Source of the DNA: an uncultured Bacillales bacterium
GTDB lineage: Bacteria; Bacillota_I; Bacilli_A; RFN20; CAG-826
DNA: 64,000 bases
Assembly (NCBI GenBank): GCA_947302535.1
Contig: CAMYVX010000004.1
Location: 221-64,220, forward strand
Direction of reading: 5' to 3'
Shown: piece after piece, positions 50,826 through 64,000 of the stretch
Layout: each line of letters opens with the position of its first letter
Numbering within the stretch: the first letter of the stretch is position 1
Notes under the pieces: model-generated
What the model saw: the letters and a program-made list of their open reading frames with translations, nothing else
What the model was told of the DNA's origin: nothing
Databases searched by the model: none
Position numbers and translations under genes: made by a program

Positions 50826-50901
50826 GGGTCTGTAGCTCACCTGGGAGAGCGCATCGTTCGCAACGATGAGGCAGCCGGTTCGATCCCGGTCAGATCCACC
50901 A
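50826..50901 (+). tRNA. tRNA-Ala with anticodon CGC
   Basis: Manual fold of the 76-nt sequence GGGTCTG TA GCTC ACCTGGGA GAGC G CATCG TTCGCAA CGATG AGGCA GCCGG TTCGATC CCGGT CAGATCC A CCA. It has the G3:U70 wobble pair (alanine identity element), discriminator A73 and an encoded CCA. The anticodon loop is TTCGCAA, reading anticodon CGC. Confidence 0.85.
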
Positions 50902-51097
50902 GAAATACCCGCTACCAGCTTTGCTGGTAAACATAGATAAGAAGTCAATCTACGGGAAAGATTTCAAAACACAAGAAGGATGATAATCCATCCTTGGTAA
51001 GTATAGCCCCCATTTATGTAACTATACGAAAGCATTTGAGTCATAGAGATTATTCGCTAGCTTGTTGGGGCAAGCGGCTTGATGCGAAATCATCTTC

Positions 51098-51289
51098 CTA
51101 TTTGGAAGATTTTTTCTTTTCAAGAACGTCAATTAACTCCTCGTCTTCTTTTGATAAATGCCAATTGAGAAATGGCTTGGAGAAATACTTTTGGGGAATG
51201 TTTTCAATCCTAACGACGCAAAGATAAGCGGGGCTGTCATCTTTAGGGTTTGGATTACTATTCATCTGAATATATGTGTCGTCGGCCAA
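51098..51289 (-). CDS. Doubtful small ORF abutting repeat A1
   Basis: 63 aa from a TTG start that lies inside the repeat boundary. No recognisable domain. It may be a gene remnant or spurious. Confidence 0.15.
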   Translation of the reverse strand: MADDTYIQMNSNPNPKDDSPAYLCVVRIENIPQKYFSKPFLNWHLSKEDEELIDVLEKKKSSK

Positions 51290-51698
51290 ACTCGTTTATT
51301 CGGTTTTGCACAAAACGACTTATCCAACATAGATGAGGCCTCCGTGTGAGGTCTTTTCTTGTGTCTCAGACCAGGCTCGAACTCCCGACCTCTTGCGAAC
51401 GATGCGCTTTCCCAGCATGAGCTAGCCATATTCGAGTTCTAAGGAACGTTTATATAAATATAAAGCATTTACTTGCTTGCCTGATTTCTATGTCCCAGAT
51501 GGCTTGTTTTTCAAATGTCTCTCATGGTGTGACAAAAAGAGCTGTCTATATAACGTATAGTATTGATGTGAGCAATCGAAGTAGCCTCACGCCTCATTAT
51601 AAACTCCATCTCACATATTTTAAGTTCATTTTACCAAAGCGCATATCTAAAGCTGGCCTACTTGCTACTTCAGGGCTGGCTTTTTCTTTGCTTTAACA
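51277..51698 (+). repeat. Repeat A, copy 1 (about 420 bp)
   Basis: Near-identical to 53039..53462, and its first 92 bp also recur at 57905..57996. It contains the palindrome GTTTTGCACAAAAC, a CCTC-CGTGT-GAGG hairpin followed by TCTTTTCTT, and at 51368..51428 (reverse strand) a degenerate tRNA-Ala-like segment that shares the 15-mer GCGCATCGTTCGCAA with the real tRNA. The track ORF 51490..51696 (MSQMACF…) lies inside it and is probably non-coding. Confidence 0.85.
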
Positions 51699-52085
51699 TT
51701 GTTAACGATGCTTACACTAGGTATGCTATGTAGTTGTGGGGGATATGTTAAGAATTATTCTGCAACCATTTTGATTACTTCTTGTCAAGGTGATGAAGCA
51801 AGTATGAAATTTGATACATTTAATGGAACGTATAATTTCAAATTAAGAAGAGATAATATGGCTGAGTATACACTTGATTATGAAGCAAGTCTAGCTGAAG
51901 GTGAAATGAGTGTTTATATCGGAGTTGATGGTGAAAAAGAATTATTATTTGTAGTTAAGGGTGGAGAATCCTACGACGAAACGATTACACTTCATAATAA
52001 ATATGATAATGAAAAAACAATCTACATTATTCTTGAATCGACAGGTAAATGTGTAGATGGTGATTTTGAGTTTGAGTACAATTAA
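51699..52085 (+). CDS. Hypothetical small secreted or lipoprotein-like protein
   Basis: 128 aa with a short hydrophobic N-terminus containing Cys residues (MLTMLTLGMLCSCGG). The called start is TTG; an ATG lies at 51708. It begins exactly where repeat A1 ends. Confidence 0.45.
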   Translation: MLTMLTLGMLCSCGGYVKNYSATILITSCQGDEASMKFDTFNGTYNFKLRRDNMAEYTLDYEASLAEGEMSVYIGVDGEKELLFVVKGGESYDETITLHNKYDNEKTIYIILESTGKCVDGDFEFEYN

Positions 52086-52134
52086 TTTAAGTGAAACAAA
52101 CAAATAAATTAGAATTTGTAAAGGAGAAACAACG

Positions 52135-52917
52135 ATGAAAATTGACGTTAATGAATTGTTTGAAGAACTTGGAAGCCTTTCGCAAGTAGAAGCGATTGCT
52201 CTTGGTGGGTCAAGAGCGACTGGTAGAAATGATGAAAAATCAGATTACGATGTGTATGTGTACATAACAAGCAGTATTGATGAAAATGTGCGAAGAAATA
52301 TTCTGGAAAAATACTGCAGATATATGGAAATCGGGAATTCCTTTTGGGAACTTGAAGATGATGTTACCTTAAATGATGGAATTGATATGGACATCATTTA
52401 CAGAAATATGCAGGATTTTGAAGACATGGTTTCCTCTGTTGTAATAGACTGTGTGCCATGTAATGGCTATACCACTTGTATGTGGCATAATCTCATTACC
52501 GCTAAAATTGTAATAGATAAAAATGGAAAACTGAGCGCTCTACAGGAAAAATATCGGATTCCATATCCAAAGAAGCTAAAGGAGAAGATCATATCCAATA
52601 ATCTAAAGCTTCTTAGTGGTATGTTACCGTCATTTGATATGCAGATAAAAAAGGCAGAGAATAGAGGGGACCTTGTAAGCGTCAATCATAGGGTTGCTGA
52701 ATTCCTCGCAAGTTATTTCGATATTATTTTTGCACTGAATGAGATGACACACCCTGGGGAGAAGAGAATGCAAAGTATTTGTTCTGAGGAATGCAAGATT
52801 TTGCCTAATCGCTTTGACGAAAATCTGAACAGATTATTTGCAGGAATGTTCAGAGAGAGTATATCAGATGTAATAAATGATATGATAATTGAGATAAAAA
52901 CGATTACGAAGATGTAG
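52135..52917 (+). CDS. Pol-beta superfamily nucleotidyltransferase with a C-terminal helical domain (LnuB/ANT-like architecture)
   Basis: N-terminal motif LGGSRATGRNDEKSDYDVYVY (GS…DxD) and a downstream DMDIIY motif, 260 aa. This is the architecture of lincosamide and aminoglycoside nucleotidyltransferases. Confidence 0.6.
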   Translation: MKIDVNELFEELGSLSQVEAIALGGSRATGRNDEKSDYDVYVYITSSIDENVRRNILEKYCRYMEIGNSFWELEDDVTLNDGIDMDIIYRNMQDFEDMVSSVVIDCVPCNGYTTCMWHNLITAKIVIDKNGKLSALQEKYRIPYPKKLKEKIISNNLKLLSGMLPSFDMQIKKAENRGDLVSVNHRVAEFLASYFDIIFALNEMTHPGEKRMQSICSEECKILPNRFDENLNRLFAGMFRESISDVINDMIIEIKTITKM

Positions 52918-53038
52918 TCAAATTCCTATTTATCGATTAGATATTATTATTAAACGATTACAAGCAGGTGGTTTCATTATTAAACGATTATATTTAAATT
53001 GTATTAATATTGTCGTACCTTGCCACATAAGTAAATCA

Positions 53039-53462
53039 TGTCGTTGGTCAAACTCGTTTATTCGGTTTTACACAAAACGACTTATCCAACATAGATGAGG
53101 CCTCCGTGTGAGGTCTTTTCTTGTGTCTCAGACCAGGCTCGAACTCCCGACCTCTTGCGAACGATGCGCTTTCCCAGCATGAGCTAGCCATATTCGAGTT
53201 CTAAGGAACGTTTATATAAATATAAAGCATTTACTTGCTTGCCTGATTTCTATGTCCCAGATGGCTTGTTTTTCAAATGTCTCTCATGGTGTGACAAAAA
53301 GAGCTGTCTATATAACGTATAGTATTGATGTGAGCAATCGAAGTAGCCTCACGCCTCATTATAAACTCCATCTCACATATTTTAAGTTCATTTTACCAAA
53401 GCGCATATCTAAAGCTGGCCTACTTGCTACTTCAGGGCTGGCTTTTTTTCTTGCCTTTAACA
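53039..53462 (+). repeat. Repeat A, copy 2
   Basis: About 98% identical to 51277..51698, differing by a few substitutions and a small indel near the 3' end. The track ORF 53252..53473 is the same frame as in copy 1. Confidence 0.85.
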
Positions 53463-53506
53463 TAGTTAACTAAAATAGCATTCAGTACCCCGTGCGATCA
53501 TCAGTG

Positions 53507-53594
53507 TTTTCTTGTTCGCGAATGGATTGAATCACGACATAATACGGATAGTGACTTTTAGACAAAACTGAATGGATGAGTTTGTACAACTACA
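53507..53594 (+). repeat. Repeat B, copy 1 (about 88 bp)
   Basis: TTTTCTTGTTCGCGAATGGATTGAATCACGACATAATACGGATAGTGACTTTTAGACAAAACTGAATGGATGAGTTTGTACAACTACA. Related copies lie at 59027..59114, 63144..63231 and, partially, 63953..64000. Its 3' 49 bp is an imperfect inverted repeat of the 5' 49 bp of repeat A. Confidence 0.8.
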
Positions 53595-54063
53595 ATATGA
53601 TTTTGGATAATCTAACATTTTCTTAATATCATGTGTAATCATGTAACCATTTAATTTTGTTTTTGAATTCTCGCTTCTTGTTTCTACTAAAACGACGATA
53701 AATGGATGATGGCCATTTCTTCTATAAAAACGAAAATGATACTTGTCGTGGCCATTATACTTTCTGTATCTAGACATATAAAAAATCACCTTCCTATATA
53801 TCGTTCCTTAAGAAAGAGTTGTGATTGGGGGGAACGATATATTTAGGCAATTAAACAATATAGTGCAGCGATTGTTCCTAATGTTTGTACATATAGAGTA
53901 CTTTGGGAATAAAGCAATAGCAATAAAAACTTTGTATTTATTGAATGTTAGCAAAAATAAGCTTGTTACATAGTAACAATTAGCAGTATTGCGTCGTGAC
54001 TGCTTGCTTCCTCTTCTTCTTCTTATAATTTGACTATAAAAATATAAGGGAAGCCTATAAATC

Positions 54064-54810
54064 ATGCTGTTTTGTCTTTTCAAGCAAAACACCATGAAAA
54101 AAGTTGTTATGAAAACGCTATTAGAAAATATACTTTCAAATATCATCAATTTAGGAATTGTTTTTACAAACGAATTAGAATTTCAGTTTTATCTTGCTCA
54201 AGAATTGAAATCAAATTCAACTGTAAAAGATGTTCTATTTGAGGTTCCTTCTTTTTCAAAACCTTGGTCTATTGTTAGTAAAAATTTAAAATCAATATCA
54301 AAAAAGGATAAACAATATACAGATTTGATTGCTTGTTTAAAAAATGGAATGCATGTAGCAATTGAATTAAAATATAAAACACCTAACAAAGCACATATTT
54401 ACTTGACTTCTAATGGCCCTGTGCTAACAATGGCACAAGGCGCTTATTATTTAGGTGCTTATTCTTTTCTGAGAGATGTTGAAAGACTAGTTAATGTTAT
54501 CTCAAAGAAAAGATTTTATGTAAACAATATTACCATTGATGAAGCTTATGCTATTTTTTTAACGAACGATTCAAATTACAGGAATAATTCTTTCACTAAA
54601 GGAAGTGGCGTTTGGAAGAAATTTGCGATTAATGATGGTGCAACAATCCCAAATAAGATTTTAACGACCCCTAGTAGTTATAATAAATTACATTTACCAC
54701 AATTAAATCTTTCTGGTTTAAAAACGAAGGGGGTTTTTAATTGGACTCCAAAATCCACTATAACTAATAATTCTTCTGATTTTGCATATATAGTTTTGGA
54801 GGTTAAATAA
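54064..54810 (+). CDS. Hypothetical protein with a PD-(D/E)xK nuclease-like motif
   Basis: 248 aa with D…(hydrophobic)xELKYK arrangement (YTDLIACLKNGMHVAIELKYK). The true start may be MKKVVMK at 54094. Confidence 0.5.
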   Translation: MLFCLFKQNTMKKVVMKTLLENILSNIINLGIVFTNELEFQFYLAQELKSNSTVKDVLFEVPSFSKPWSIVSKNLKSISKKDKQYTDLIACLKNGMHVAIELKYKTPNKAHIYLTSNGPVLTMAQGAYYLGAYSFLRDVERLVNVISKKRFYVNNITIDEAYAIFLTNDSNYRNNSFTKGSGVWKKFAINDGATIPNKILTTPSSYNKLHLPQLNLSGLKTKGVFNWTPKSTITNNSSDFAYIVLEVK

Positions 54811-54813
54811 AAC

Positions 54814-57540
54814 ATGAAAAACAAAAAATGTATTTTAGGTATTAGTATAATTGGATCAGTTCTGCTAGCTTGTTCAACTCTCTCATTGATTATTAATACA
54901 AATTTTTCTATTGATTTTTCTTACGCGGGTAATACAACATATGGTATCTCTTTTAATTCCTCGAAAAATAAATTTCACTCATATACAGGCAACACCGCTT
55001 ATGATGGTGAGGCCACAATTAAAACAGAATTAGATAATGATGTTAACTTCTCTTATTACCAGATTAAAGGTGTGACCACTACATGGCACGTTTTAGGTAG
55101 TGGTGGTTATTTTTATAACACCGATCCAATTCACGGAATTGAAAGTATCACGTTGAATTTCAAAACCAACAATGCCGATTATGATATTCTCTATTCCTAT
55201 GATAAAAGTTTTGATCATTCTCAATCATTTGTCTCATCTACTACAGGTGGTACGACATATAGTTTTGATGGATATAAGCCAAACTATTTTAAAGTAGTTA
55301 ATAATAGTGGCGCTAACTTTAATATTTCTTCAATCGATATCGTCTTATCTTGTTTGAATAATTATCCAACCTTATCTATCAGTAGTGAGAACCCAACAAT
55401 GGGCACTGTTTCTGGTGGAGGAGTTAAGATTCAAGGAACACAAACCACAATTGTGGCCACTCCAGATCAAGGCTATAGATTTGTTGGCTGGTATGATGGA
55501 GAGACTCTAATTTCCTCTCAATCATCATATACATTCACTATTGAAAATGATGATGTAACTTATGTTGCTAGATTTACATATCAAACATATAACTTAGTGG
55601 TTCAATCTGAATCGTCAACAAAAGGGACTGTTTCTGATTCCACAGGACAATATGATTATCTAACCCCAGTTACTATTGAAGCCACACCAAAACCAGGTTA
55701 TTCATTCAATGGCTGGTACGAAGGAAATAATCTTGTTTCTAACAGCAACCCATATAATTTCACAATGCCTTATACAAACAAGACATATACCGCTAAATTT
55801 AGTACAAATTCCTATGAATTAACTCTTGTGAACGCTAATAGTGAGCTAGGTAGTATTACTGGAGCGGGAACTAAAACATATGGTAGTAGTGTGACTATTA
55901 CCGCCACTCCTAATACCGGTGTATCTTTCCTAGGCTGGTACAATAGTGGTGATAATCTAATCTCTTCTTTAACATCCTATACATTCAATATGCCTTATGA
56001 AGATTTAACATATACAGCTAAATTTGCATGGACTCCATATTCAGTTAGTTTAAGCATTAATGATGATTCTATGGGCTCTGTCAGCGGCAGTGGCTCTTAT
56101 ACTTATGGACAAGAAGTATCTTTAGTGGCCACTCCTAACGAACATTATTCATTCTTTGGTTGGTATGATGGAGAAACATTATTATCTCAAAAAACAACAT
56201 ATGTATTTGATATGCCTGATAACTCATTAGATTATCAAGCTAGATTTGTCCAAAACCATAGCCTCTATATTTATAGCGAAGACGAATCTAAAGGAACCGT
56301 TTCTTATCCAAATGAATGGGGGGAAGGGTTAGAAGTAACTATAACTGCGAACGCGGATACTGGATACGCTCTCGACTACTGGTATGATGAAGATTTAAAC
56401 CCAGTTTCCTATGATTTTTCTTATACATTTATCATGCCAAATAATGATGTTACACTCTGGGCAGCATTTACCCAAGGATATACGTTAACAGTGATATCTA
56501 GTGATGAAACAAAAGGCGCTGTCACTGGTAGCGGACAATATGTTGCAGGCAGAAATGTCACTGTTACAATGAACTATCTTTCCGGAACATTTAAGGGCTG
56601 GTTTGATAGTAATAATCAATTAGTTAGTATAGATAATCCTTACACATTTGTTATGCCAACCAACAATTATTCTCTTGAAGCTAGATTTATAACGCAAGAA
56701 GAAGAATGGAATATAGCCCATGGTGTAACACCAATTATTTCTAATGATGGAAAAACAATCACATATGGTTTATACCCTCAAACAAATATTGATGATCCTT
56801 CATTGATATCCACACTTAATGGTTTAACCACTCCTGAAACGAATGGATGGTACTTATACGAAGATGAATACTATGCAAAAACAAGCGCCCATCCATATTT
56901 TTCGAATTATAAGTTTGATAATGGTGAAACAATTGTAAGTGGTACAACTTATTGGTTTAAATGTGAGCCTATCGTTTGGAATGTTTTAAGCAACAATAAC
57001 ACAGAGTATTCTATCCTCTCATCTTTATTAATAGATTCACATAGATATAACGAATCTTATGATGGCACTAAAGATGGCCATTATGCAAATAATTACAAGT
57101 ATTCGGAAATAAGAAGCTGGTTAAATGATGACTTTTATAATTCTGCATTTGCTCTAGACAATAGTTATATCCAAACAACAAACGTCGATAACAGTGCTTC
57201 CACTACAGATAGTTCAAGTAATCAATATGCCTGTGAGAATACAAATGACAAGGTATTCTTACCTAGTTATAAAGACTATCTTAATAGCTCATACGGATTC
57301 TCAACATCAACCAGTTCAACCAGTTCTAGATACTGCAGAACTACTGACTGGGCAAGAGCAAGAGGCTCAAGCTATTACAGTGGCTCTTATCAATATAATG
57401 GCGAATATTGTACCCGTTCTCCTTACAGCTACGGCCCCTACTATGCGTGGATTGTCTATGGCGATGGTAGTCTCCGCACCAACGACATCTGTTACAATGG
57501 TCGCAGTGTTCGCCCCAGCCTTTCACTTCATATTGCGTAG
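54814..57540 (+). CDS. Large surface lipoprotein with about 8 tandem InlB-B/Listeria-Bacteroides-type repeats and a distinct C-terminal domain
   Basis: Signal peptide with lipobox LLAC. Repeated modules of about 90 aa carry the signature G(S/T)VSG…TATPN.GY.F.GWYDG…YTF.MP…Y.A.F. The C-terminal domain of about 290 aa ends …YNGRSVRPSLSLHIA, reminiscent of FISUMP/DUF1566-like C-terminal domains. Confidence 0.8.
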   Translation: MKNKKCILGISIIGSVLLACSTLSLIINTNFSIDFSYAGNTTYGISFNSSKNKFHSYTGNTAYDGEATIKTELDNDVNFSYYQIKGVTTTWHVLGSGGYFYNTDPIHGIESITLNFKTNNADYDILYSYDKSFDHSQSFVSSTTGGTTYSFDGYKPNYFKVVNNSGANFNISSIDIVLSCLNNYPTLSISSENPTMGTVSGGGVKIQGTQTTIVATPDQGYRFVGWYDGETLISSQSSYTFTIENDDVTYVARFTYQTYNLVVQSESSTKGTVSDSTGQYDYLTPVTIEATPKPGYSFNGWYEGNNLVSNSNPYNFTMPYTNKTYTAKFSTNSYELTLVNANSELGSITGAGTKTYGSSVTITATPNTGVSFLGWYNSGDNLISSLTSYTFNMPYEDLTYTAKFAWTPYSVSLSINDDSMGSVSGSGSYTYGQEVSLVATPNEHYSFFGWYDGETLLSQKTTYVFDMPDNSLDYQARFVQNHSLYIYSEDESKGTVSYPNEWGEGLEVTITANADTGYALDYWYDEDLNPVSYDFSYTFIMPNNDVTLWAAFTQGYTLTVISSDETKGAVTGSGQYVAGRNVTVTMNYLSGTFKGWFDSNNQLVSIDNPYTFVMPTNNYSLEARFITQEEEWNIAHGVTPIISNDGKTITYGLYPQTNIDDPSLISTLNGLTTPETNGWYLYEDEYYAKTSAHPYFSNYKFDNGETIVSGTTYWFKCEPIVWNVLSNNNTEYSILSSLLIDSHRYNESYDGTKDGHYANNYKYSEIRSWLNDDFYNSAFALDNSYIQTTNVDNSASTTDSSSNQYACENTNDKVFLPSYKDYLNSSYGFSTSTSSTSSRYCRTTDWARARGSSYYSGSYQYNGEYCTRSPYSYGPYYAWIVYGDGSLRTNDICYNGRSVRPSLSLHIA

Positions 57541-57904
57541 TTTACAAAACAATAATCGACCACTTATCAAAAGCAAAAGAGGTGGCATTATGCAAGAAAG
57601 AAAAATAAAATGATTAGCAATGGATTAAAGAATAAACCTCTATGATACCGGCAAGCAAAGTCAATTGTCCCGTTTTTGTATAATGATTTGAAAAGCGATG
57701 ATAAGTGACAAAAACTGCATAAATAATAGCATTTTCGCCGCAAAACCCTAATATTTTAAAATTTTATTGTAACTTATATATGGTGTAGAAGCCAGAATAA
57801 TACACTAGCTCAATTAAAAACAGGACATTGAGTTCTCCTGTCCCGAAAATATAAGAGGTAGCATGTTATTATCGTAGCGCTTCAGATCCACCATAAATAT
57901 GAAC

Positions 57905-57996
57905 TGTCGTCGGCCAAACTCGTTTATTCGGTTTTGCACAAAACGACTTATCCAACATAGATGAGGCCTCCGTGTGAGGTCTTTTCTTGTGTCTCA
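57905..57996 (+). repeat. Repeat A, copy 3 (5' 92 bp only)
   Basis: Identical to the first 92 bp of repeat A, then diverges into a GACCTC-CTCGT-GAGGTC hairpin followed by TTTTT (58005..58026) and a CATTGTTCGAAACAATG palindrome. A 12-nt copy of the tRNA-Ala 3' end (TCAGATCCACCA) lies at 57883..57894. Confidence 0.8.
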
Positions 57997-58065
57997 AACT
58001 CGCCGACCTCCTCGTGAGGTCTTTTTCATTGTTCGAAACAATGTATAATTACTATTGAAAGCAAA

Positions 58066-58938
58066 ATGATTAGATTTGTAAATTTTCAACATTGTTATTA
58101 TCAACAAGTTTGTGATTTTTTGATTGAAATTAACAAAGAGAATAATTATCACAACAATTGGAATTGGGCGCGATTTGAATGGATGTATGAGCACCCTTTA
58201 ACCCAAAAAGAACTACTACATTATATGGGTCTATGGTTTGATGATAATCATCTTGTGGGTGCGGCTTTAATCGATATGTTTTTTGGTGAAGCGTTCGTTG
58301 GTGTACTAAATAAATATCAAAGCTTATATCCAGAAGTATTAAAATACGCTTTTGATAATTTAAAAGATGATCAAGGCTTAGGCATATCTTTCCGCGATGA
58401 AAATATAGATGAAATTAATGAAGCGATTAAACAAGGCTTTAGTAAAGTTGAAGTAGAAGAAATAGATTGTGAAATTAATCTTGATAAGGAATTTGCTATT
58501 TCCTTGCCTGAAGGATTTAGTGTTGAAACGTTTGATGCTGAAAAAAACGCTAAAGAAATAGAATGGTTATTTTATCAGGGTTTTGATCACGGAAATGATA
58601 AAGAAGAATTTCTAAAACAACATAAAGAGCCAACAGGATCTAGACCTCATTTTAATCCATATCTGTGTATTGTTATTAGAAATAAACAAGGTGAACTGGT
58701 GGCTAGCGCCTCAACTTGGTATGACCCAAGAACTGATTACGCTTATGTAGAACCAGTTTGTGTCATTCCTGAATGTCGAAAGATGGGCTTAGGAAAGGCT
58801 GCGGTCTACACCGCGATTAATCACGCTAGAGAATTAGGTGCAAAAAGAGCAATAGTTAATTCTGGACAAGAATTCTACCAAAGGATAGGTTTTAGAAAGA
58901 AAAACCATTACTCCTTCTATTGGAAAAAAGAACTATAA
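58066..58938 (+). CDS. GNAT family N-acetyltransferase
   Basis: C-terminal GNAT motif A (VIPECRKMGLGKAAVYTAINHARELG), 290 aa. Confidence 0.75.
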   Translation: MIRFVNFQHCYYQQVCDFLIEINKENNYHNNWNWARFEWMYEHPLTQKELLHYMGLWFDDNHLVGAALIDMFFGEAFVGVLNKYQSLYPEVLKYAFDNLKDDQGLGISFRDENIDEINEAIKQGFSKVEVEEIDCEINLDKEFAISLPEGFSVETFDAEKNAKEIEWLFYQGFDHGNDKEEFLKQHKEPTGSRPHFNPYLCIVIRNKQGELVASASTWYDPRTDYAYVEPVCVIPECRKMGLGKAAVYTAINHARELGAKRAIVNSGQEFYQRIGFRKKNHYSFYWKKEL

Positions 58939-59026
58939 AGTCACCCTTAAACATTTCTACATTTACACTTTTTCAAAAATAACATAATCAAAGTAAAAGA
59001 ATTGGTCGAGTGAAATATCTCGGTTT

Positions 59027-59114
59027 TTTCTTGTTCGCGAATGAATTTAAACACGACATAATACGGATAGAGACTTTTGTGCAAAACAAGATGGATGAGT
59101 TTGTGTAACTACAG
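59027..59114 (+). repeat. Repeat B, copy 2
   Basis: TTTTCTTGTTCGCGAATGAATTTAAACACGACATAATACGGATAGAGACTTTTGTGCAAAACAAGATGGATGAGTTTGTGTAACTACA. It follows the GNAT gene. Confidence 0.8.
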
Positions 59115-59168
59115 AAAATCCCCCCGTTTATTGGACCGTTTCGGTACAATGATTTAGGGGGGTTTTTA

Positions 59169-59762
59169 TTACTCTTTGTAGAGAAAATCAATCTTAAAGA
59201 GGTTGGTCTTTAAGTCCGCCATAAGCTGTTTAATCTCGGCTTTATAGGATTGATTTTTGTGATGGATTAAATATGTTAATGCAGAGACAAAACCACCATA
59301 GATGAATGATGCGGTGACTGGGATTGAATACTTAAATGGTCTAATCTTATCGATTTCCACTAATAGTTCACTGATACCATCTTCACAGACTCTGGTTATG
59401 ATGTTGATGAGTTCAAAACTGTAGTTCTTTTCTAGTGAACGGATATATTCAATATTTGTTTCAATATATTCGATAACCTTACCCAATATACTGATGAGGT
59501 ATTCAGCAATATCATCGATTGATGTTGTTTGTTTCTTTGGAACCTGATTCATGATGCTATCTTTGATTTCGTTAATCGCATCATCTAATAGGAGATACTT
59601 ATCTTCATAATACTTATAGAATGTCATCCTATTAATCAGCGCGTGCTCGCATATATCTTTAACTGTAATCTTCTCTAATGGACGATCCTTTAATAATGCG
59701 AGAATTGATTCTCTTAATACCTTTCTAGTCTTTTGAATTCTTAAGTCTTCTTTGTACTGCAT
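59169..59762 (-). CDS. TetR/AcrR family transcriptional regulator
   Basis: N-terminal helix-turn-helix (ITVKDICEHALINRMTFYKYY), 197 aa. Divergent from the MMPL transporter gene. Confidence 0.85.
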   Translation of the reverse strand: MQYKEDLRIQKTRKVLRESILALLKDRPLEKITVKDICEHALINRMTFYKYYEDKYLLLDDAINEIKDSIMNQVPKKQTTSIDDIAEYLISILGKVIEYIETNIEYIRSLEKNYSFELINIITRVCEDGISELLVEIDKIRPFKYSIPVTASFIYGGFVSALTYLIHHKNQSYKAEIKQLMADLKTNLFKIDFLYKE

Positions 59763-59946: not shown

Positions 59947-62900
59947 ATGAAAAAAATTTGTTCATTCATTGTAAGGTTTAGATATTGGCTCTTAGGCTTA
60001 TTCGCTATCTTAGTTGGTTCATCTTGCATTCTCATGCAACACGTGAATATCAACTATAACTTAATGCAATATCTAGACAAGGGTTCATCATCCACAGTGG
60101 CGTTAACTGTCATGGAAGATGAATTCGGAAGTGTCGGTCAATGTCAAGTATTAGTGACCCACCTCACCTATCAAGAAGCAGAAGAAGCCAAAGACAAGAT
60201 TGAAAGTGTCGAAGGTGTTGCTTCTGTTGTCTTCGCTTCCAGTGAAGCAGATTCTGATTATTACAATCCTGTGACAGGTGACGCTTTATACAAAGTGTTC
60301 TTAACCACAAGTAACTACGATAAAGCGACATATAAAACACTAGATAGGATTAGAGCGGAATTAAAAGATTACACAATCTCATTAAATGGTGGTTCAGTTG
60401 AATCTGAATTCTTAACTAAGGCACTCGCTAGAGATATGACGATTATTCTAACAATTGTTGTAGTGGTGGTTTTGGGTATTTTATTACTCACATCATCTTC
60501 ATATGTTGAACCACTTATCTTCTTATTTGTCGCTGGTGGTGCGATTCTCATCAACCTCGGTACAAACATCCTATTGAACGCAATTCCATATATCGGTAAT
60601 TCCATGTCATTCATCACGAAGAGCATTGCCGCGGTTATGCAATTAGCGTTATCCATGGACTATGCGATTATTCTCCTTCATACGTATAAAGAAGAAAAAG
60701 AACATTACGATGACAATAAAGAAGCGATGAAAGCCGCTTTAAGAAGAGCGTTCGCTCCTGTATCCTCATCATCCATTACCACAATCGCTGGTTTAGTGGC
60801 CTTGATGTTCATGAGCTTCTCCATCGGATTTGACGTTGGTCTAGTTCTCGCAAAAGGTATTTTACTCAGCTTATTATGCGTGTTCTTATTCATGCCTGCA
60901 TTATTACTTACATTTGATAAATTACTCGCAAAAACCTCGCAAAAACCAATCGATCGTATCATTATTGGCAAAATCAAAGCCCATCACTTAAAGAGAAAAC
61001 AACAAGGTAAGAAAGTCCATTCAATGGCTTCCTTCCAAAAGAAAACAAGAATCGTTGTTCCTCTTTTAGCGGTCGCCTTATTCGGTGTAGCTGCGGTGTT
61101 CAATTTCACCTCAACTTATAGCTTCACCCTTCAAGCATCAACGGATGCGAATTCCACGATTAACGTTGATGATAAAAAGATTACAGATGAATTCGGTACA
61201 CAAAATACCTTAGTCGTCTTAATTGAAAAGAAGGATAGACAAAAATCCGAAATCAAAGTGGAAGAAGAGGAAATCATCAACTACTTAAAGAACTATGAAT
61301 ACAATGGTGAAAAGGTGATTAACTCCGTTCAAGGTTATAGCACATACGGTGTATATAATGATTTAACCGCTGAACAATTCGCTGGATTATATCTCGATGC
61401 GGATATGTATAACGCAAACGTCAGAGGCGTTACAGTGTTATATCAATATCTCCAAGCCAGTGGATTAGCCTATCTCGATAGTGAAAATAACTTAAGAGCA
61501 AACGTTTATAACGTCGTTGCATTCGCTAAAGAGAATGAAGGTGCGAAAAAGATTACCGAACAATCTCAAGCCTTAATGGATAAAGTTGCTTCAGCCTATT
61601 ATGTGGAATTAACCAAAGAACAATTCGCTGCTGCGAACAATATCAACGCCACAATCGTTGAAAACATCTACTCCACAATGTCAGTGGAAAAAGCGACAAC
61701 ATATGATGTCTTAAAGTTCGTCCATGATAATAATTATGCTGTTGCAGCATTCACCAATATTCAAAACAACATCAATTCTTCTTATGAAGATTTGAAGACC
61801 AATGGTGTATTTAACGCTGATGGTTCAGTCAATGAAACCGTTGTCGGTGGTATGAAAGCATATTGTGATGCTTATGAAGCTGGTCAAGTTGATACAACAG
61901 ATCCTGCAAATCAACAAAAATATGCAACCTATAAGAAGATTGTTATTGAATTCAATAAAGAACAATTAATGGCTCAATACCCATTCATCACTGAAGATAC
62001 CGCTTCTGCCTTATTACAAGGTAAAGAAACAGTTCCTAACTATTTAGTGGTTCAAGCTTCTTCTCTTAACAATATCCCTGCTCAATATGGACAAGGTATG
62101 CAAGGGGTGATTAACGCTAAATATGCGGAAATCCCTGTTAAAGATGAAGTCATCACCAAAGAAGACGCCAAGATGAACTATGGTGTTGATGACCAAACTC
62201 TTGCTGCACTATATCAAAGTGGTGATATCACCAATGGTGTCTTATTCAAATTCTTAAGCGATAACAAATACTACACCAACGAACAATATCAAGGTCAAAT
62301 GCAAGCTAGATTCGATGCCAGCTATGAAGCATTCGCAAACTTTGAATCTGATAACTACATCAGAGTCATCTTCAACTTCAATATGCCAACATCTAGCAAA
62401 GACTCCTTCAAAGCAATTAACGAAATTAGCAATCACTTATATGGCACATATGATGATGTTAAATTGGTTTCGGAAACATTCGTGTATTCACAAATCAAAC
62501 AAGTCTTCAACCGTGACGTTGTCATCGTTAACATCATCTCATTCGTCGCTATCTTATTAATCATCGCTGTCACATTCAAATCAGCGTTCACCCCAGTATT
62601 ATTAACATTATTAATCCAAGGTGCTATCTGGTTCACAATGGGTATCTCCACAGTGTTTGGAAAAGAAATCTTCTTCATCTGTTACATCGTGGTTATGTGT
62701 GTCCAAATGGGTGCGACAATTGACTATGGTATCTTATTAACTAATAACTATATTCAAAATAGAAAGAAATATAGTAGAAAAGACTCTATGGCTTTAGCGA
62801 TGAACTCATCCATCGCCACAATCTTGACCTCTGGTTCAATTCTCGTCTTAGCAACATTAATCATTGGGTTAGTTTCTAAGGTTTCCATCGTTTCAGACTT

Positions 62901-63114
62901 AGGTATGCTCTTATCAAGAGGCTGCTTAATCTCCTTATTGATGATTATCTTCGTCTTACCACAGTGCTTAATTATCTGTGATAAGGTGATTGAAAAAACA
63001 TCAGTTAAGACCAAGTTTGCTGATCCAAATAATGATGTCTTAGATGAAGACCTCATTGAAATTGATGATAATGGTGAAACCAAACAAATCGAATCTCATG
63101 AAGAGAGTAAATAA
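59947..63114 (+). CDS. MMPL-family (RND superfamily) membrane transporter
   Basis: 1055 aa with two TM bundles, each followed by a large extracytoplasmic domain, as in MMPL/YdfJ. Paired with the TetR regulator. Confidence 0.85.
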   Translation: MKKICSFIVRFRYWLLGLFAILVGSSCILMQHVNINYNLMQYLDKGSSSTVALTVMEDEFGSVGQCQVLVTHLTYQEAEEAKDKIESVEGVASVVFASSEADSDYYNPVTGDALYKVFLTTSNYDKATYKTLDRIRAELKDYTISLNGGSVESEFLTKALARDMTIILTIVVVVVLGILLLTSSSYVEPLIFLFVAGGAILINLGTNILLNAIPYIGNSMSFITKSIAAVMQLALSMDYAIILLHTYKEEKEHYDDNKEAMKAALRRAFAPVSSSSITTIAGLVALMFMSFSIGFDVGLVLAKGILLSLLCVFLFMPALLLTFDKLLAKTSQKPIDRIIIGKIKAHHLKRKQQGKKVHSMASFQKKTRIVVPLLAVALFGVAAVFNFTSTYSFTLQASTDANSTINVDDKKITDEFGTQNTLVVLIEKKDRQKSEIKVEEEEIINYLKNYEYNGEKVINSVQGYSTYGVYNDLTAEQFAGLYLDADMYNANVRGVTVLYQYLQASGLAYLDSENNLRANVYNVVAFAKENEGAKKITEQSQALMDKVASAYYVELTKEQFAAANNINATIVENIYSTMSVEKATTYDVLKFVHDNNYAVAAFTNIQNNINSSYEDLKTNGVFNADGSVNETVVGGMKAYCDAYEAGQVDTTDPANQQKYATYKKIVIEFNKEQLMAQYPFITEDTASALLQGKETVPNYLVVQASSLNNIPAQYGQGMQGVINAKYAEIPVKDEVITKEDAKMNYGVDDQTLAALYQSGDITNGVLFKFLSDNKYYTNEQYQGQMQARFDASYEAFANFESDNYIRVIFNFNMPTSSKDSFKAINEISNHLYGTYDDVKLVSETFVYSQIKQVFNRDVVIVNIISFVAILLIIAVTFKSAFTPVLLTLLIQGAIWFTMGISTVFGKEIFFICYIVVMCVQMGATIDYGILLTNNYIQNRKKYSRKDSMALAMNSSIATILTSGSILVLATLIIGLVSKVSIVSDLGMLLSRGCLISLLMIIFVLPQCLIICDKVIEKTSVKTKFADPNNDVLDEDLIEIDDNGETKQIESHEESK

Positions 63115-63125
63115 CAACATTCATT

Positions 63126-63150
63126 AGCCACCTCACTGGTGGCTTTTCTT
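63126..63150 (+). terminator. Intrinsic terminator after the MMPL gene; its T-run is the start of repeat B3
   Basis: AGCCACC-TCACT-GGTGGCT hairpin followed by TTTTCTTG. Confidence 0.7.
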
Positions 63151-63231
63151 GTTCGCGAATGATTATAAACACGACATAATACGGATAGAGACTTTTGTGC
63201 AATTCTTGATAAGTGAGTCTGTGTAACTACA
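63144..63231 (+). repeat. Repeat B, copy 3
   Basis: TTTTCTTGTTCGCGAATGATTATAAACACGACATAATACGGATAGAGACTTTTGTGCAATTCTTGATAAGTGAGTCTGTGTAACTACA. Confidence 0.8.
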
Positions 63232-63325
63232 AGTTAGAAGGTCGCTAGTAATGGAGACTTTTTGTGTGGCACTTTTGTGATAGTTATTTGATATAATGAA
63301 ATCACTTATTCAAGGAGAAAAAGTT

Positions 63326-63613
63326 GTGAAAAAAGAATTACTAAAAGGTCTTAGCAATGAACAAATCGCTAAAATTGAGAAATGTAAAAACACAGACGAA
63401 ATATTAGCTTTAGCTAAATCTGAAGGCATTGAACTTACCGATGAACAATTAGAAGCTGTCAATGGCGGATGTGGTAAATCAAAAGAATGGTACGAAATTG
63501 ACAATATGCAATGTCCAGAATGTCTTAACAGCCACTGTATGGAAAAAGTCTCAGACGCATGGTATAGATGCAAGTACTGTAATAAAATTACAGTCAATAA
63601 AAATCTTCAATAA
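63326..63613 (+). CDS. Nif11-like leader, double-glycine, Cys-rich precursor peptide 1 (putative RiPP/bacteriocin precursor)
   Basis: Leader (V)KKELLKGLSNEQIAKIEKCKNTDEILALAKSEGIELTDEQLEAVNGG, then core CGKSKEWYEIDNMQCPECLNSHCMEKVSDAWYRCKYCNKITVNKNLQ with 6 Cys. Preferred start is GTG at 63326 with the RBS AAGGAG at 63313..63318; the track ORF starts at 63296. Confidence 0.7.
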   Translation: MKKELLKGLSNEQIAKIEKCKNTDEILALAKSEGIELTDEQLEAVNGGCGKSKEWYEIDNMQCPECLNSHCMEKVSDAWYRCKYCNKITVNKNLQ

Positions 63614-63630: not shown

Positions 63631-63921
63631 TTGAACATGAAACAAGAATTATTGAAAGGTTTAACCAAAGAACAAATTGAAAAAATTAAAGCGTGTAAGA
63701 ATCAAGAAGAATTATTGGCGCTAGCCAGAGCTGAAGGAATCGAACTTACTGACGAACAACTCACCGCTATTAATGGTGGTGGTGCTTGTAGTGTTATTTC
63801 AGATATTGGAGATTATATCAATCCATATGATTGTCCAAGATGTGGCAGTAATAATATTAAAGACAAAGGCACCTATTATATCTGCCAAAGCTGTGGCTAC
63901 AAAATTGAAAATTACGATTAA
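63631..63921 (+). CDS. Nif11-like leader, double-glycine, Cys-rich precursor peptide 2 (paralogue)
   Basis: Leader MNMKQELLKGLTKEQIEKIKACKNQEELLALARAEGIELTDEQLTAINGGG, then core ACSVISDIGDYINPYDCPRCGSNNIKDKGTYYICQSCGYKIENYD, which has a zinc-ribbon-like CPRC…CQSC pattern. Confidence 0.7.
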   Translation: MNMKQELLKGLTKEQIEKIKACKNQEELLALARAEGIELTDEQLTAINGGGACSVISDIGDYINPYDCPRCGSNNIKDKGTYYICQSCGYKIENYD

Positions 63922-63934
63922 ACAAACGAGTATA

Positions 63935-63957
63935 ACCGAGCTTAGCTCGGTTTTTTC
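63935..63957 (+). terminator. Intrinsic terminator after precursor peptide 2
   Basis: ACCGAGC-TTA-GCTCGGT hairpin followed by TTTTTTCTTG. Confidence 0.7.
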
Positions 63958-64000
63958 TTGTCTGAGCCATCGTGCGAACGATGAGCGAGTTAAAACCCCC
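63953..64000 (+). repeat. Repeat B-like element (variant), truncated by the window end
   Basis: TTTTTTCTTGTCTGAGCCATCGTGCGAACGATGAGCGAG… Same TTTTCTTGT entry point as the other B copies, then an anticodon-arm-like CATCG-TGCGAA-CGATG resembling the tRNA-Ala anticodon arm. Confidence 0.55.

Follow-up and report, generated by a model that had tools for sequence, protein, structure and literature searches.

Small cargo-carrying units with inverted ends beside tRNA-Ala(CGC) in an uncultured Bacillales bacterium: probable transposons mobilised in trans

Miniature inverted-repeat transposable elements (MITEs) and mobile insertion cassettes (MICs), such as the IS231-derived MIC231 of Bacillus cereus, have inverted-repeat ends and no transposase; they are mobilised in trans and duplicate their target on insertion. 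Some hold one passenger gene, and their many copies, with unrelated cargo, are scattered around the genome. Integron arrays and tycheposons are the work of tyrosine or serine recombinases, which act at a constant core site and leave no target duplication. Here we describe a family of units that shares features with both, in a stretch of 64,000 nucleotides (the window) from an uncultured Bacillales bacterium (GenBank assembly GCA_947302535.1, contig CAMYVX010000004.1). The units are bounded by two kinds of repeat, A on the left and B on the right, and include a compact copy of 556 bp at 53039..53594. An earlier note on this DNA had taken A and B for opposite ends of a non-autonomous transposon or MITE family able to carry cargo. 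A target duplication and the recurrence of the end similarity bear this out: A and B are opposite ends of one family of cargo-carrying transposable elements. With a probability of about 75%, we read the family as terminal inverted repeat (TIR) transposons that are mobilised in trans, duplicate 5 bp of target and insert preferentially beside a tRNA-Ala gene.

The likeness to MITEs and MICs lies in the TIRs, the target duplication, the lack of a transposase, the unrelated interiors and the existence of small copies without cargo; unlike those elements, the A/B family is directed to one tRNA gene and forms ordered head-to-tail arrays, and its ends are unrelated to theirs. Integron arrays and tycheposons likewise gather many small, mostly single-gene, co-oriented cassettes on one chromosomal platform, which in tycheposons also lies next to a tRNA gene, whereas A/B units have inverted-repeat ends, a variable 5-bp duplication and no linked recombinase. 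To our knowledge, classical integrons have not been reported in the group of Bacilli concerned. Non-autonomous TIR transposons with target duplication are familiar; new are the direction to one tRNA gene and the ordered stacking of co-oriented cassettes, by which the niche of the integron would be reached through transposition instead of site-specific recombination, in Firmicutes-type bacteria of the ruminant gut.

Two further groups of transposon invite comparison. Elements of the Tn5053/Tn402 group (TniA-TniB-TniQ-TniR), to which the ends of class 1 integrons belong, make a 5-bp duplication and insert in an oriented and targeted manner, and defective derivatives that move in trans are common. 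They differ from the A/B family in targeting the res sites of plasmids and transposons in Proteobacteria, and no tni genes were found for A/B. The hexamer TGTCGT that opens the A copies forms the first six bases of the Tn402 repeat IRi, TGTCGTTTTCAGAAGACGGCTGCAC (PMC8248536), which is weak evidence; past the first 6-7 nt the A/B ends have no sequence similarity to IRi. In Tn7-like elements the termini are TGT/ACA, insertion takes place at a set distance from an attachment gene, and target immunity is the norm (PMC11014353); experiments have demonstrated homing directed by TnsD to a point 30-33 nt downstream of a tRNA gene (PMC10293859). Homing transposons of this kind include type I-B2 and I-D CRISPR-associated transposons (CASTs), through their protein-guided pathway, and those of type V-K also sit by tRNA genes. 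The A/B family is like them in its TGT...ACA termini, its 5-bp duplication, the direct repeats, as putative transposase sites, within its ends, its insertion at a fixed distance and in one orientation, and its diverse accessory and defence cargo; its distance of 12-14 bp is unlike the 30-33 nt of CyCAST homing.

Inverted ends, an empty site and the 556-bp unit

The unit that inserted here is a composite transposon, A1..B1, of 2318 bp (51277..53594, + strand), and it splits a gene for a protein of 118 aa. The 3' part of this gene, including the left ATATG (51272-51276), lies at 51098..51276, and the right ATATG (53595-53599) with the 5' part lies at 53595..53777, both on the minus strand. Deletion of 51277-53594 and one ATATG joins 51098-51276 to 53600-53777 and yields an uninterrupted coding sequence of 357 nt. 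The restored 118-aa protein has intact homologues, among them P0001 (118 aa; 99% identity over 100% of the length), which is encoded by L067; L-numbers here and below denote comparison contigs from other assemblies. L067, a metagenome contig of 652 bp, also supplies the empty site for which the earlier note had recommended a search: its positions 230-642 correspond to window 51276-50865 (98%) and 9-234 to window 53820-53595 (100%); one ATATG forms the overlap between these matches, the flanks of A1..B1 being joined without the element. A1..B1 entered the 118-aa gene as one 2318-bp unit and duplicated 5 bp of target. L002 and L005 contain this composite too, with its internal A copy, at 93-95% identity; there it adjoins tRNA-Ala at +13/14 bp, so the whole unit has moved at least twice.

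The A copies of the window start at 51277, 53039 and 57905 and each opens TGTCGT, while the B copies end at 53594, 59113 and 63231 and each closes ACTACA; no copy of either lies in positions 1-50,000. A1 and A2 have 432 bp in common (98%), A3 shares only the first 95 bp, and the B copies have ~94 bp in common. When the first 49 nt of A are aligned without gaps to the reverse complement of the last 49 nt of B, 33 of 49 positions match in six of the nine window pairs, the figure first reported, and 31 of 49 in the three pairs that involve B3. Shuffled B sequences give 13.1±3.1 (maximum 23), and the best of 200,000 random 49-mers from the window reaches 27. Extending the alignment to other contigs, with 26 distinct A ends set against 17 distinct B ends, gave a mean of 31/49 (range 24-35). 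A 13-mer shared by A and B, GTTTTGCACAAAA, is indeed present in A1, A3 and B2, but it is not conserved across the family and is not a functional core. Nor could its palindrome be upheld as a functional hairpin: conservation is lacking, and the ends show no significant single-strand fold (z = -0.8, +0.4 and -0.1).

A profile built from 43 distinct ends reads TGTcGT..(.)CAAA.TCActTATcc......TTGcACAAAAcgactTATCC. Each end is an imperfect inverted repeat of ~55 bp with a TGT...ACA terminus, in which an 18-bp motif is directly repeated once at a spacing of 24 bp; the two copies within an end are identical at 11.1 of 18 positions at the 24-nt offset, compared with ~4.5 at neighbouring offsets. With a weight matrix of this motif, each A or B end in the window yields two sites and no more, scoring 9-25 bits, where the best site in 100 kb of background scores 11.9. 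Matches to a hidden Markov model (HMM) of the ends nearly all start with TGT, apart from rare TGC variants and a few degraded termini. The left repeat of A1 (51277..51331, +; HMM E=2.9e-16) has its sites at 51285-51302 and 51309-51326 on the same strand (18.4 and 25.5 bits), and the right repeat of B1 (53540..53594, -; E=1.3e-10) has them at 53569-53586 and 53545-53562, also on the minus strand (15.9 and 9.3 bits). These 18-bp motifs are presumably binding sites for the transposase, and we treat them as candidates for that role. They are the same in number and layout on left and right ends, where TnsB-type ends have several repeats, arranged asymmetrically. An intrinsic terminator inside the A end reads inward from the tRNA side (51335..51362, +; terminator scan, fold z = -2.6), with further terminators inside A ends at 53097-53124 and 57963-57990, and the T-run of the terminator behind the cargo gene marks the start of B. 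The sequence TTTTCTTGT occurs seven times on the + strand, always within 51-64 kb, and is carried by the terminators inside A and before B.

The A2-B1 unit (53039..53594, +) is of MITE type and nested in the composite, and consists, as originally described, of A2 (53039-53470) and B1 (53501-53594) back to back over 556 bp. The earlier note had proposed to look for a target duplication immediately outside 53039 and 53594; the flanks are AATCA and ATATG, and the nesting of the unit within A1..B1 explains why it lacks a separate duplication. That it is nonetheless a MITE-like unit is upheld by full-length stand-alone homologues at L023 1440-895 (546 bp, 83% identity, 13 bp after tRNA-Ala) and L013 2177-1644 (534 bp, 81% identity), and by a 378-bp internal-deletion derivative at L040 2476-2853, flanked CGAAA/CGAAA. 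The unit had been called empty of cargo, and cargo genes are indeed lacking, but its interior holds a terminator, a tRNA-Ala-like pseudogene and conserved non-coding DNA (~330 bp). The suggestion that A1 and A2 are a pair of ends split by cargo at 51277..53038 fell away: both are left ends in the same orientation, and A2 is internal to the composite.

The pseudogene resembles tRNA-Ala(CGC), lies in reverse orientation in the long form of A (51355..51424 and 53117-53186, minus strand) and is not called by ARAGORN. It shares 76% identity over 74 nt with the real tRNA-Ala(CGC) and lacks the 3' arm of the anticodon stem. Its place is just after the terminator in every A end; it is shortened in A3 (~57985-58010), and another lies at 63953-64000. 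In six copies whose terminal repeats have diverged, the pseudogene is nearly invariant, and it may be a targeting relic, a decoy or a regulator. A search for a small RNA in the MITE interior gave no convincing structure and no Rfam match. Across 50-64 kb, Rfam (E<=1) returned only the tRNA and a sub-threshold isrD match, so A and B are not known RNAs.

The tRNA-Ala(CGC) target and the arrays

The variable array is anchored by tRNA-Ala(CGC) at 50826..50901 (+; called by ARAGORN, and scored at 57.7 bits by the Rfam tRNA model). Eight loci have A/B units adjoining this tRNA gene, and in them the interval from CCA to TGT is 12 nt (L061), 13 nt (L002, L014, L023, L040 and L050) or 14 nt (L005 and L013). 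The left (A-type) end is proximal to the tRNA in 8/8, although spacer sequences and proximal elements differ. The preferred target is 12-14 bp downstream of the tRNA-Ala(CGC) CCA, with the A-type end nearest the tRNA. Because distance and orientation are constant while the sequences vary, a protein that measures from the tRNA is indicated. Unoccupied tRNA-Ala(CGC) sites exist in relatives (L074/L076 and L018), where a terminator directly follows the tRNA. RmuC-anchored contexts in relatives held either an unoccupied tRNA-Ala (L074-L076) or, where scanned, no called tRNA or ends (L079, L081 and L082), and yielded no autonomous element. The tRNA-Ala(CGC) gene ends in ...CAGATCCACCA or ...TGGATCCACCA, and ...TGGATCCACCA is the allele at unoccupied sites.

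In the arrays, right and left ends meet head to tail. The spacers of 15 such junctions measure 5 bp (n=7), 6 bp (n=3), 4 bp (n=2), 8 bp (n=2) and 2 bp (n=1), and more diverged end variants abut likewise; each B-5bp-A junction is an imperfect palindrome of ~110 bp. Certain 5-mers recur at the junctions of one array, CGAAA (L040) and ATCCT (L043) three times each and GCTAC (L012) and CTATT (L050) twice each. GAAAA stands on both sides of a 5.2-kb unit in L061, and AATAT/AATA is seen in L005; besides the ATATG of the composite, exact 5-mer pairs flank units in L012, L040 and L061. A 5-mer that recurs within an array is what would be expected if newcomers insert into, and duplicate, the same 5-bp target.

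As we reconstruct the process, A/B units would be non-autonomous cut-and-paste DNA transposons whose transposase is supplied in trans; the interior between their ends ranges from conserved non-coding DNA alone (the MITE forms of 378-556 bp) to one or a few genes. Repeated insertion into the same 5-bp site near tRNA-Ala would build head-to-tail arrays with 5-bp spacers. Composites using an outer A and an outer B would move too and add to the arrays, and the outcome would behave like a gene-cassette platform.

The known range of the family is narrow. An A probe matched six stretches only in 185,579 species genomes, all of them from uncultured Bacilli or Erysipelotrichaceae metagenome-assembled genomes, and the sources were reindeer and samples whose names suggest rumen. 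A B probe detected ~25 true copies in metagenome contigs. Comparison of A1..B1 with plasmid and phage collections by blastn gave no match, nor did pattern scans of viral contigs, and a full-text literature search for the end sequences found no mention. Movement of these units would account for the exchange of accessory genes among these uncultured organisms (toxin-antitoxin, Fic, RhuM, acetyltransferases, nucleotidyltransferases and peptide precursors). For annotation, the region downstream of tRNA-Ala(CGC) is a hypervariable hotspot and a point at which assemblies break.

Candidate enzymes and competing explanations

The TGT/ACA termini, the 5-bp duplication, the repeated subterminal sites and the fixed distance and orientation beside a conserved gene together suggest an enzyme of the Tn7/Tn5053/Mu type. 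More broadly, the units fit cut-and-paste transposons of the TG...CA DDE class moved in trans, and in behaviour they come closest to the Tn7/Tn5053 group. Our tentative candidate, advanced with limited confidence, would be a retroviral-integrase-type DDE transposase of that group, working with a tRNA-recognising selector akin to TnsD/TniQ. Searches for its genes covered, with Pfam, the larger open reading frames (ORFs) of the window and of L005, L011, L012, L014-L016, L018, L033, L043 and L061, several small units being left out, and detected no transposase domain. Pfam and NCBIfam applied to ~45 ORFs from array loci (~30 loci) recovered cargo only, PDB sequence searches with two large ORFs lacking an assigned family gave no match, and among 61 other fetched loci the end HMM detected nothing but a duplicate of the window. 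The 64-kb window is free of transposase and integrase genes throughout, and 20 core ORFs compared with Pfam were housekeeping genes only.

A number of points weigh against this enzyme, or against the wider reading of the units as tRNA-directed transposons mobilised in trans. Neither a transposase nor an AAA+ regulator nor TniQ/TnsD was found in the window or in ~20 delimited units, and genome, metagenome and viral scans contained no autonomous copy; the gene searches covered the window and fetched loci, not whole host genomes, and do not establish absence. Unlike Tn7-like elements, A/B units are tiny and have no tnsA/B/C/tniQ that could be found, their ends have two sites each in the same layout at both ends, and they abut at 5 bp in long tandem arrays, which Tn7-like immunity should prevent. 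The insertion proved by the empty site is in a gene, 375 bp away from the tRNA, and not at +13, so that targeting is not absolute. The argument for tRNA targeting draws on eight contigs from related organisms with shared upstream synteny, and the pattern may be partly inherited; repeated events are favoured over descent because the proximal elements and spacers differ. An exact duplication is missing for most units, which calls for later recombination or composite moves, and several arrays have unequal spacers (AAAAT/AGTAC/GAAAC in L023, and L042), which may reflect composite moves, of the kind proven for A1..B1, or recombination between near-identical ends. Finally, the arrays come from short-read metagenome assemblies, in which chimeras can arise at repeats.

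A bolder form of the Tn7-like proposal can be put forward as speculation, and we think it rather doubtful. It would make the site 13 bp downstream of tRNA-Ala(CGC) the transposase-built equivalent of an integron, at which a trans-acting, tRNA-guided, immunity-free Tn7-like enzyme, possibly chromosomal or domesticated, loads, stacks and reshuffles terminator-insulated single-gene cassettes with 55-bp TGT/ACA ends, and the reverse tRNA-Ala-like sequence aids targeting or regulation. The family offers a tractable route to a tRNA-homing transposase that is possibly free of immunity.

Ends that abut at ~5 bp in 15 junctions, disfavoured by immunity-proficient Tn7-like systems, could instead be the product of an IS21-, IS3- or IS481-type TG...CA transposase without immunity, the array having been seeded once by tRNA-Ala and then grown by end-targeting. 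Insertion next to an existing end is known for IS21 and IS30, and the TGT...ACA termini, repeated end sites and 5-bp duplication fit an IS21-like element as well, as does a proven insertion in a gene 375 bp from the tRNA instead of at +13. We nevertheless consider this origin unlikely: the distance of 12-14 nt and the orientation are kept in eight loci despite differing spacers and proximal elements, and no IstA/IstB-type genes were seen in the array loci examined.

The resemblance to integrons could be taken literally, with the B-5bp-A junction acting as an attC and a tyrosine or serine recombinase shuffling cassettes at the tRNA platform. This would agree with the gathering of single-gene cassettes at one chromosomal locus, most of them oriented alike, with the palindromic junctions and with cargo of the sort found in integron arrays (acetyltransferases, toxin-antitoxin pairs and a nucleotidyltransferase). 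The empty site speaks otherwise, since five target bases are duplicated there, and the boundary of the ectopic insertion falls in the middle of the palindrome and not at its edge, so that A and B separate. Junction 5-mers vary between genomes (CGAAA, GCTAC, ATCCT and ATATG) and provide no constant crossover core, each unit has two separate inverted ends where an integron cassette has one attC, the ends are without significant single-strand structure, and no recombinase or integrase adjoins the platform in the window. Site-specific recombination is therefore very improbable here.

A further proposal, scarcely credible, would derive B from an IS200/IS605-type (TnpA/TnpB) element, as its right end or guide-RNA region, and make A/B units the palindrome-associated derivatives of that element. 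It was brought to mind by L033 6944-8263 (minus strand), where the 3' end of a tnpA and a full tnpB of 381 aa (Cas12f1-like_TNB, OrfB_IS605) lie ~160 nt upstream of a B end. Inverted terminal repeats and target duplications, which such elements lack, both occur in the A/B family, and no tnpB lies close to more than 30 other B ends. Where IS200/IS605 elements have subterminal hairpins and insert 3' of a fixed target of 4-5 nt, the A/B ends neither fold into hairpins nor match Rfam, and their flanking 5-mers vary. The L033 genes were rejected as a source of B ends and look like an ordinary insertion sequence inside a cassette. The fallback offered by the earlier note, that A/B similarity is a terminator or regulatory motif flanking genes with nothing mobile about it, has next to no likelihood, for although the terminators inside A and just before B both carry TTTTCTTGT, the similarity resides in the outer 55 bp and not in the terminators, identical units occur in different genomic contexts, and the empty site with a single ATATG refutes it.

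Cargo and surrounding sequence

The cargo of units bounded by A and B ranges from none to a nucleotidyltransferase (NTase), GNAT, RhuM, Fic, NUDIX, hexapeptide acetyltransferases, Phd/ParE, AcnX with an oxidoreductase, and Nif11-leader peptides. Unit sizes run from 0.4 to ~5 kb, and the cargo gene points from A to B in 14 of the 15 units whose ORF reaches 70 aa or more (L061 re-oriented). In the composite A1..B1, an ORF of 128 aa without family match (51699..52085, +) precedes an NTase of 260 aa (52135..52917, +; Pfam NTP_transf_2 and DUF4037), and the two are conserved together in L002, L005 and L008. An identical 260-aa NTase protein is indexed in 1448 blocks of the collection searched, and at the DNA level the gene recurs with >99.5% identity in eight unrelated contexts that have no A or B (L001, L003, L004 and L006-L010); contexts of the gene include a prophage with two large serine recombinases, a site beside a small resolvase, and sites after tRNA-Met or a four-tRNA cluster. 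The NTase is part of a second, different and separately mobile cassette (52104-52944, in a stretch of 52104-53027). The right end of this cassette has iterons, ATTATTAAACGATTA twice here and TAGGGGTATGCAAA / AACGATTA elsewhere, and finishes ...TTGCCA or ...TTTCCA. The NTase is not a recognised resistance gene, NCBIfam giving a weak MntA-like match only.

The cargo family that recurs most often is that of the Nif11-leader, double-glycine, zinc-ribbon peptides (~95 aa), with members in 11 loci. Their genes lie at 63296-63613 and 63637-63921 in the window, at 3165-5178 in L012 and at 188-4159 in L043. L012 has several of them in a row, some individually bounded by A and B, and in L043 a C39-peptidase ABC exporter and a radical-SAM/SPASM enzyme stand beside the peptide array. 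This suggests that the cassettes diversify a repertoire of precursors of bacteriocins or ribosomally synthesised and post-translationally modified peptides.

The third A copy belongs to the unit A3-GNAT-B2 of 1209 bp (57905..59113, +), made up of A3 (57905-57999), a GNAT acetyltransferase gene (58066-58938) and B2 (59020-59113). Its ends and cargo are as the earlier note had them, except that the ACA terminus falls at 59113, one base earlier than stated; the flanks, where a target duplication might be sought, are TGAAC and GAAAA, a duplication that has decayed. Directly before A3 lies a 3' remnant of tRNA-Ala, CTTCAGATCCACCA, with an 11-nt spacer (57880..57904, +; remnant 57880-57893). The remnant is identical in 14/14 positions to the 3' end of the L002 tRNA-Ala, and remnant, 11 nt and A3 mirror the usual layout of CCA, 12-14 nt and TGT. 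The right end B3 (63138..63231, +) follows the genes for TetR (59169-59762, -) and MMPL (59947-63114) and has no adjoining left end; it may close a larger unit that starts at A3. An independent contig, L089, has the same arrangement.

The remainder of the window divides at the tRNA gene, upstream of which all is core and downstream of which all is accessory; overall G+C is 35%. Core genome close to the replication origin fills positions 1-50,755, with dnaA, yidC, mnmE, secA, a prfB-like gene, uvrB, a Y-family polymerase with yolD, and rmuC. After tRNA-Ala come a small gene, A1, the 128-aa ORF, the NTase, A2 and B1; then a PD-(D/E)xK-like ORF, an InlB-repeat surface protein and the 14-nt tRNA remnant; and last A3, GNAT, B2, TetR, MMPL, B3 and two Nif11-leader/zinc-ribbon peptide genes. 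The source contig and two independent contigs all terminate inside the array, and a search for sequence beyond the window end found the independent ones to break off at the same point. Look-ups of exact protein contexts had no record of the window's RmuC, GNAT or MMPL proteins or of one peptide-gene start variant.

The PD-(D/E)xK-like ORF (54064-54810, +) encodes 248 aa and matches nothing in Pfam or NCBIfam. Residues E37, E60, D87 and E101-L-K103 are invariant among 17 homologues, and its structural model (predicted local distance difference test score, pLDDT, 78) shows a generic PD-(D/E)xK nuclease fold, with SduA (Shedu) as best match at E=0.004 and TnsA at E=0.24. A relic of TnsA was considered and rejected, the matches being weak and generic to PD-(D/E)xK; the predicted protein is probably a defence-type nuclease and not a transposon protein.

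The stretch of ~7 kb at 50902-57893 has the intact tRNA-Ala at its left and the 14-nt tRNA 3' remnant at its right. Since the remnant is followed by the usual spacer and A3, the stretch has the look of an island that integrated into the tRNA gene and retains no integrase. The sequence that directly follows the intact tRNA resembles the L013 spacer, and after it comes a fragment of an A end (AACATAGATAAG), possibly a decayed left end. Homologues of the split 118-aa gene in L069-L072, which are other Bacilli contigs with no A/B ends, adjoin a tRNA-Ala(GGC)/tRNA-Arg(CCT) pair, and a B end lies near the same pair in L053.

After the last B end, the sequence at window 59114-59168 is homologous to L002 11439-11500 and runs GAA(A/T)(A/T)TCCCCC ... 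GTACAATGA ... GGGGG(G)TTTT, a long-loop hairpin that is probably the native tRNA-Ala terminator displaced by insertions. Between several B ends and the peptide genes downstream of them lies a motif TGGCAC-N5-TTGT, similar to a -24/-12 promoter of the sigma-54 type; it is seen at ~63262-63280 in the window and in the B flanks of L034 and L018.

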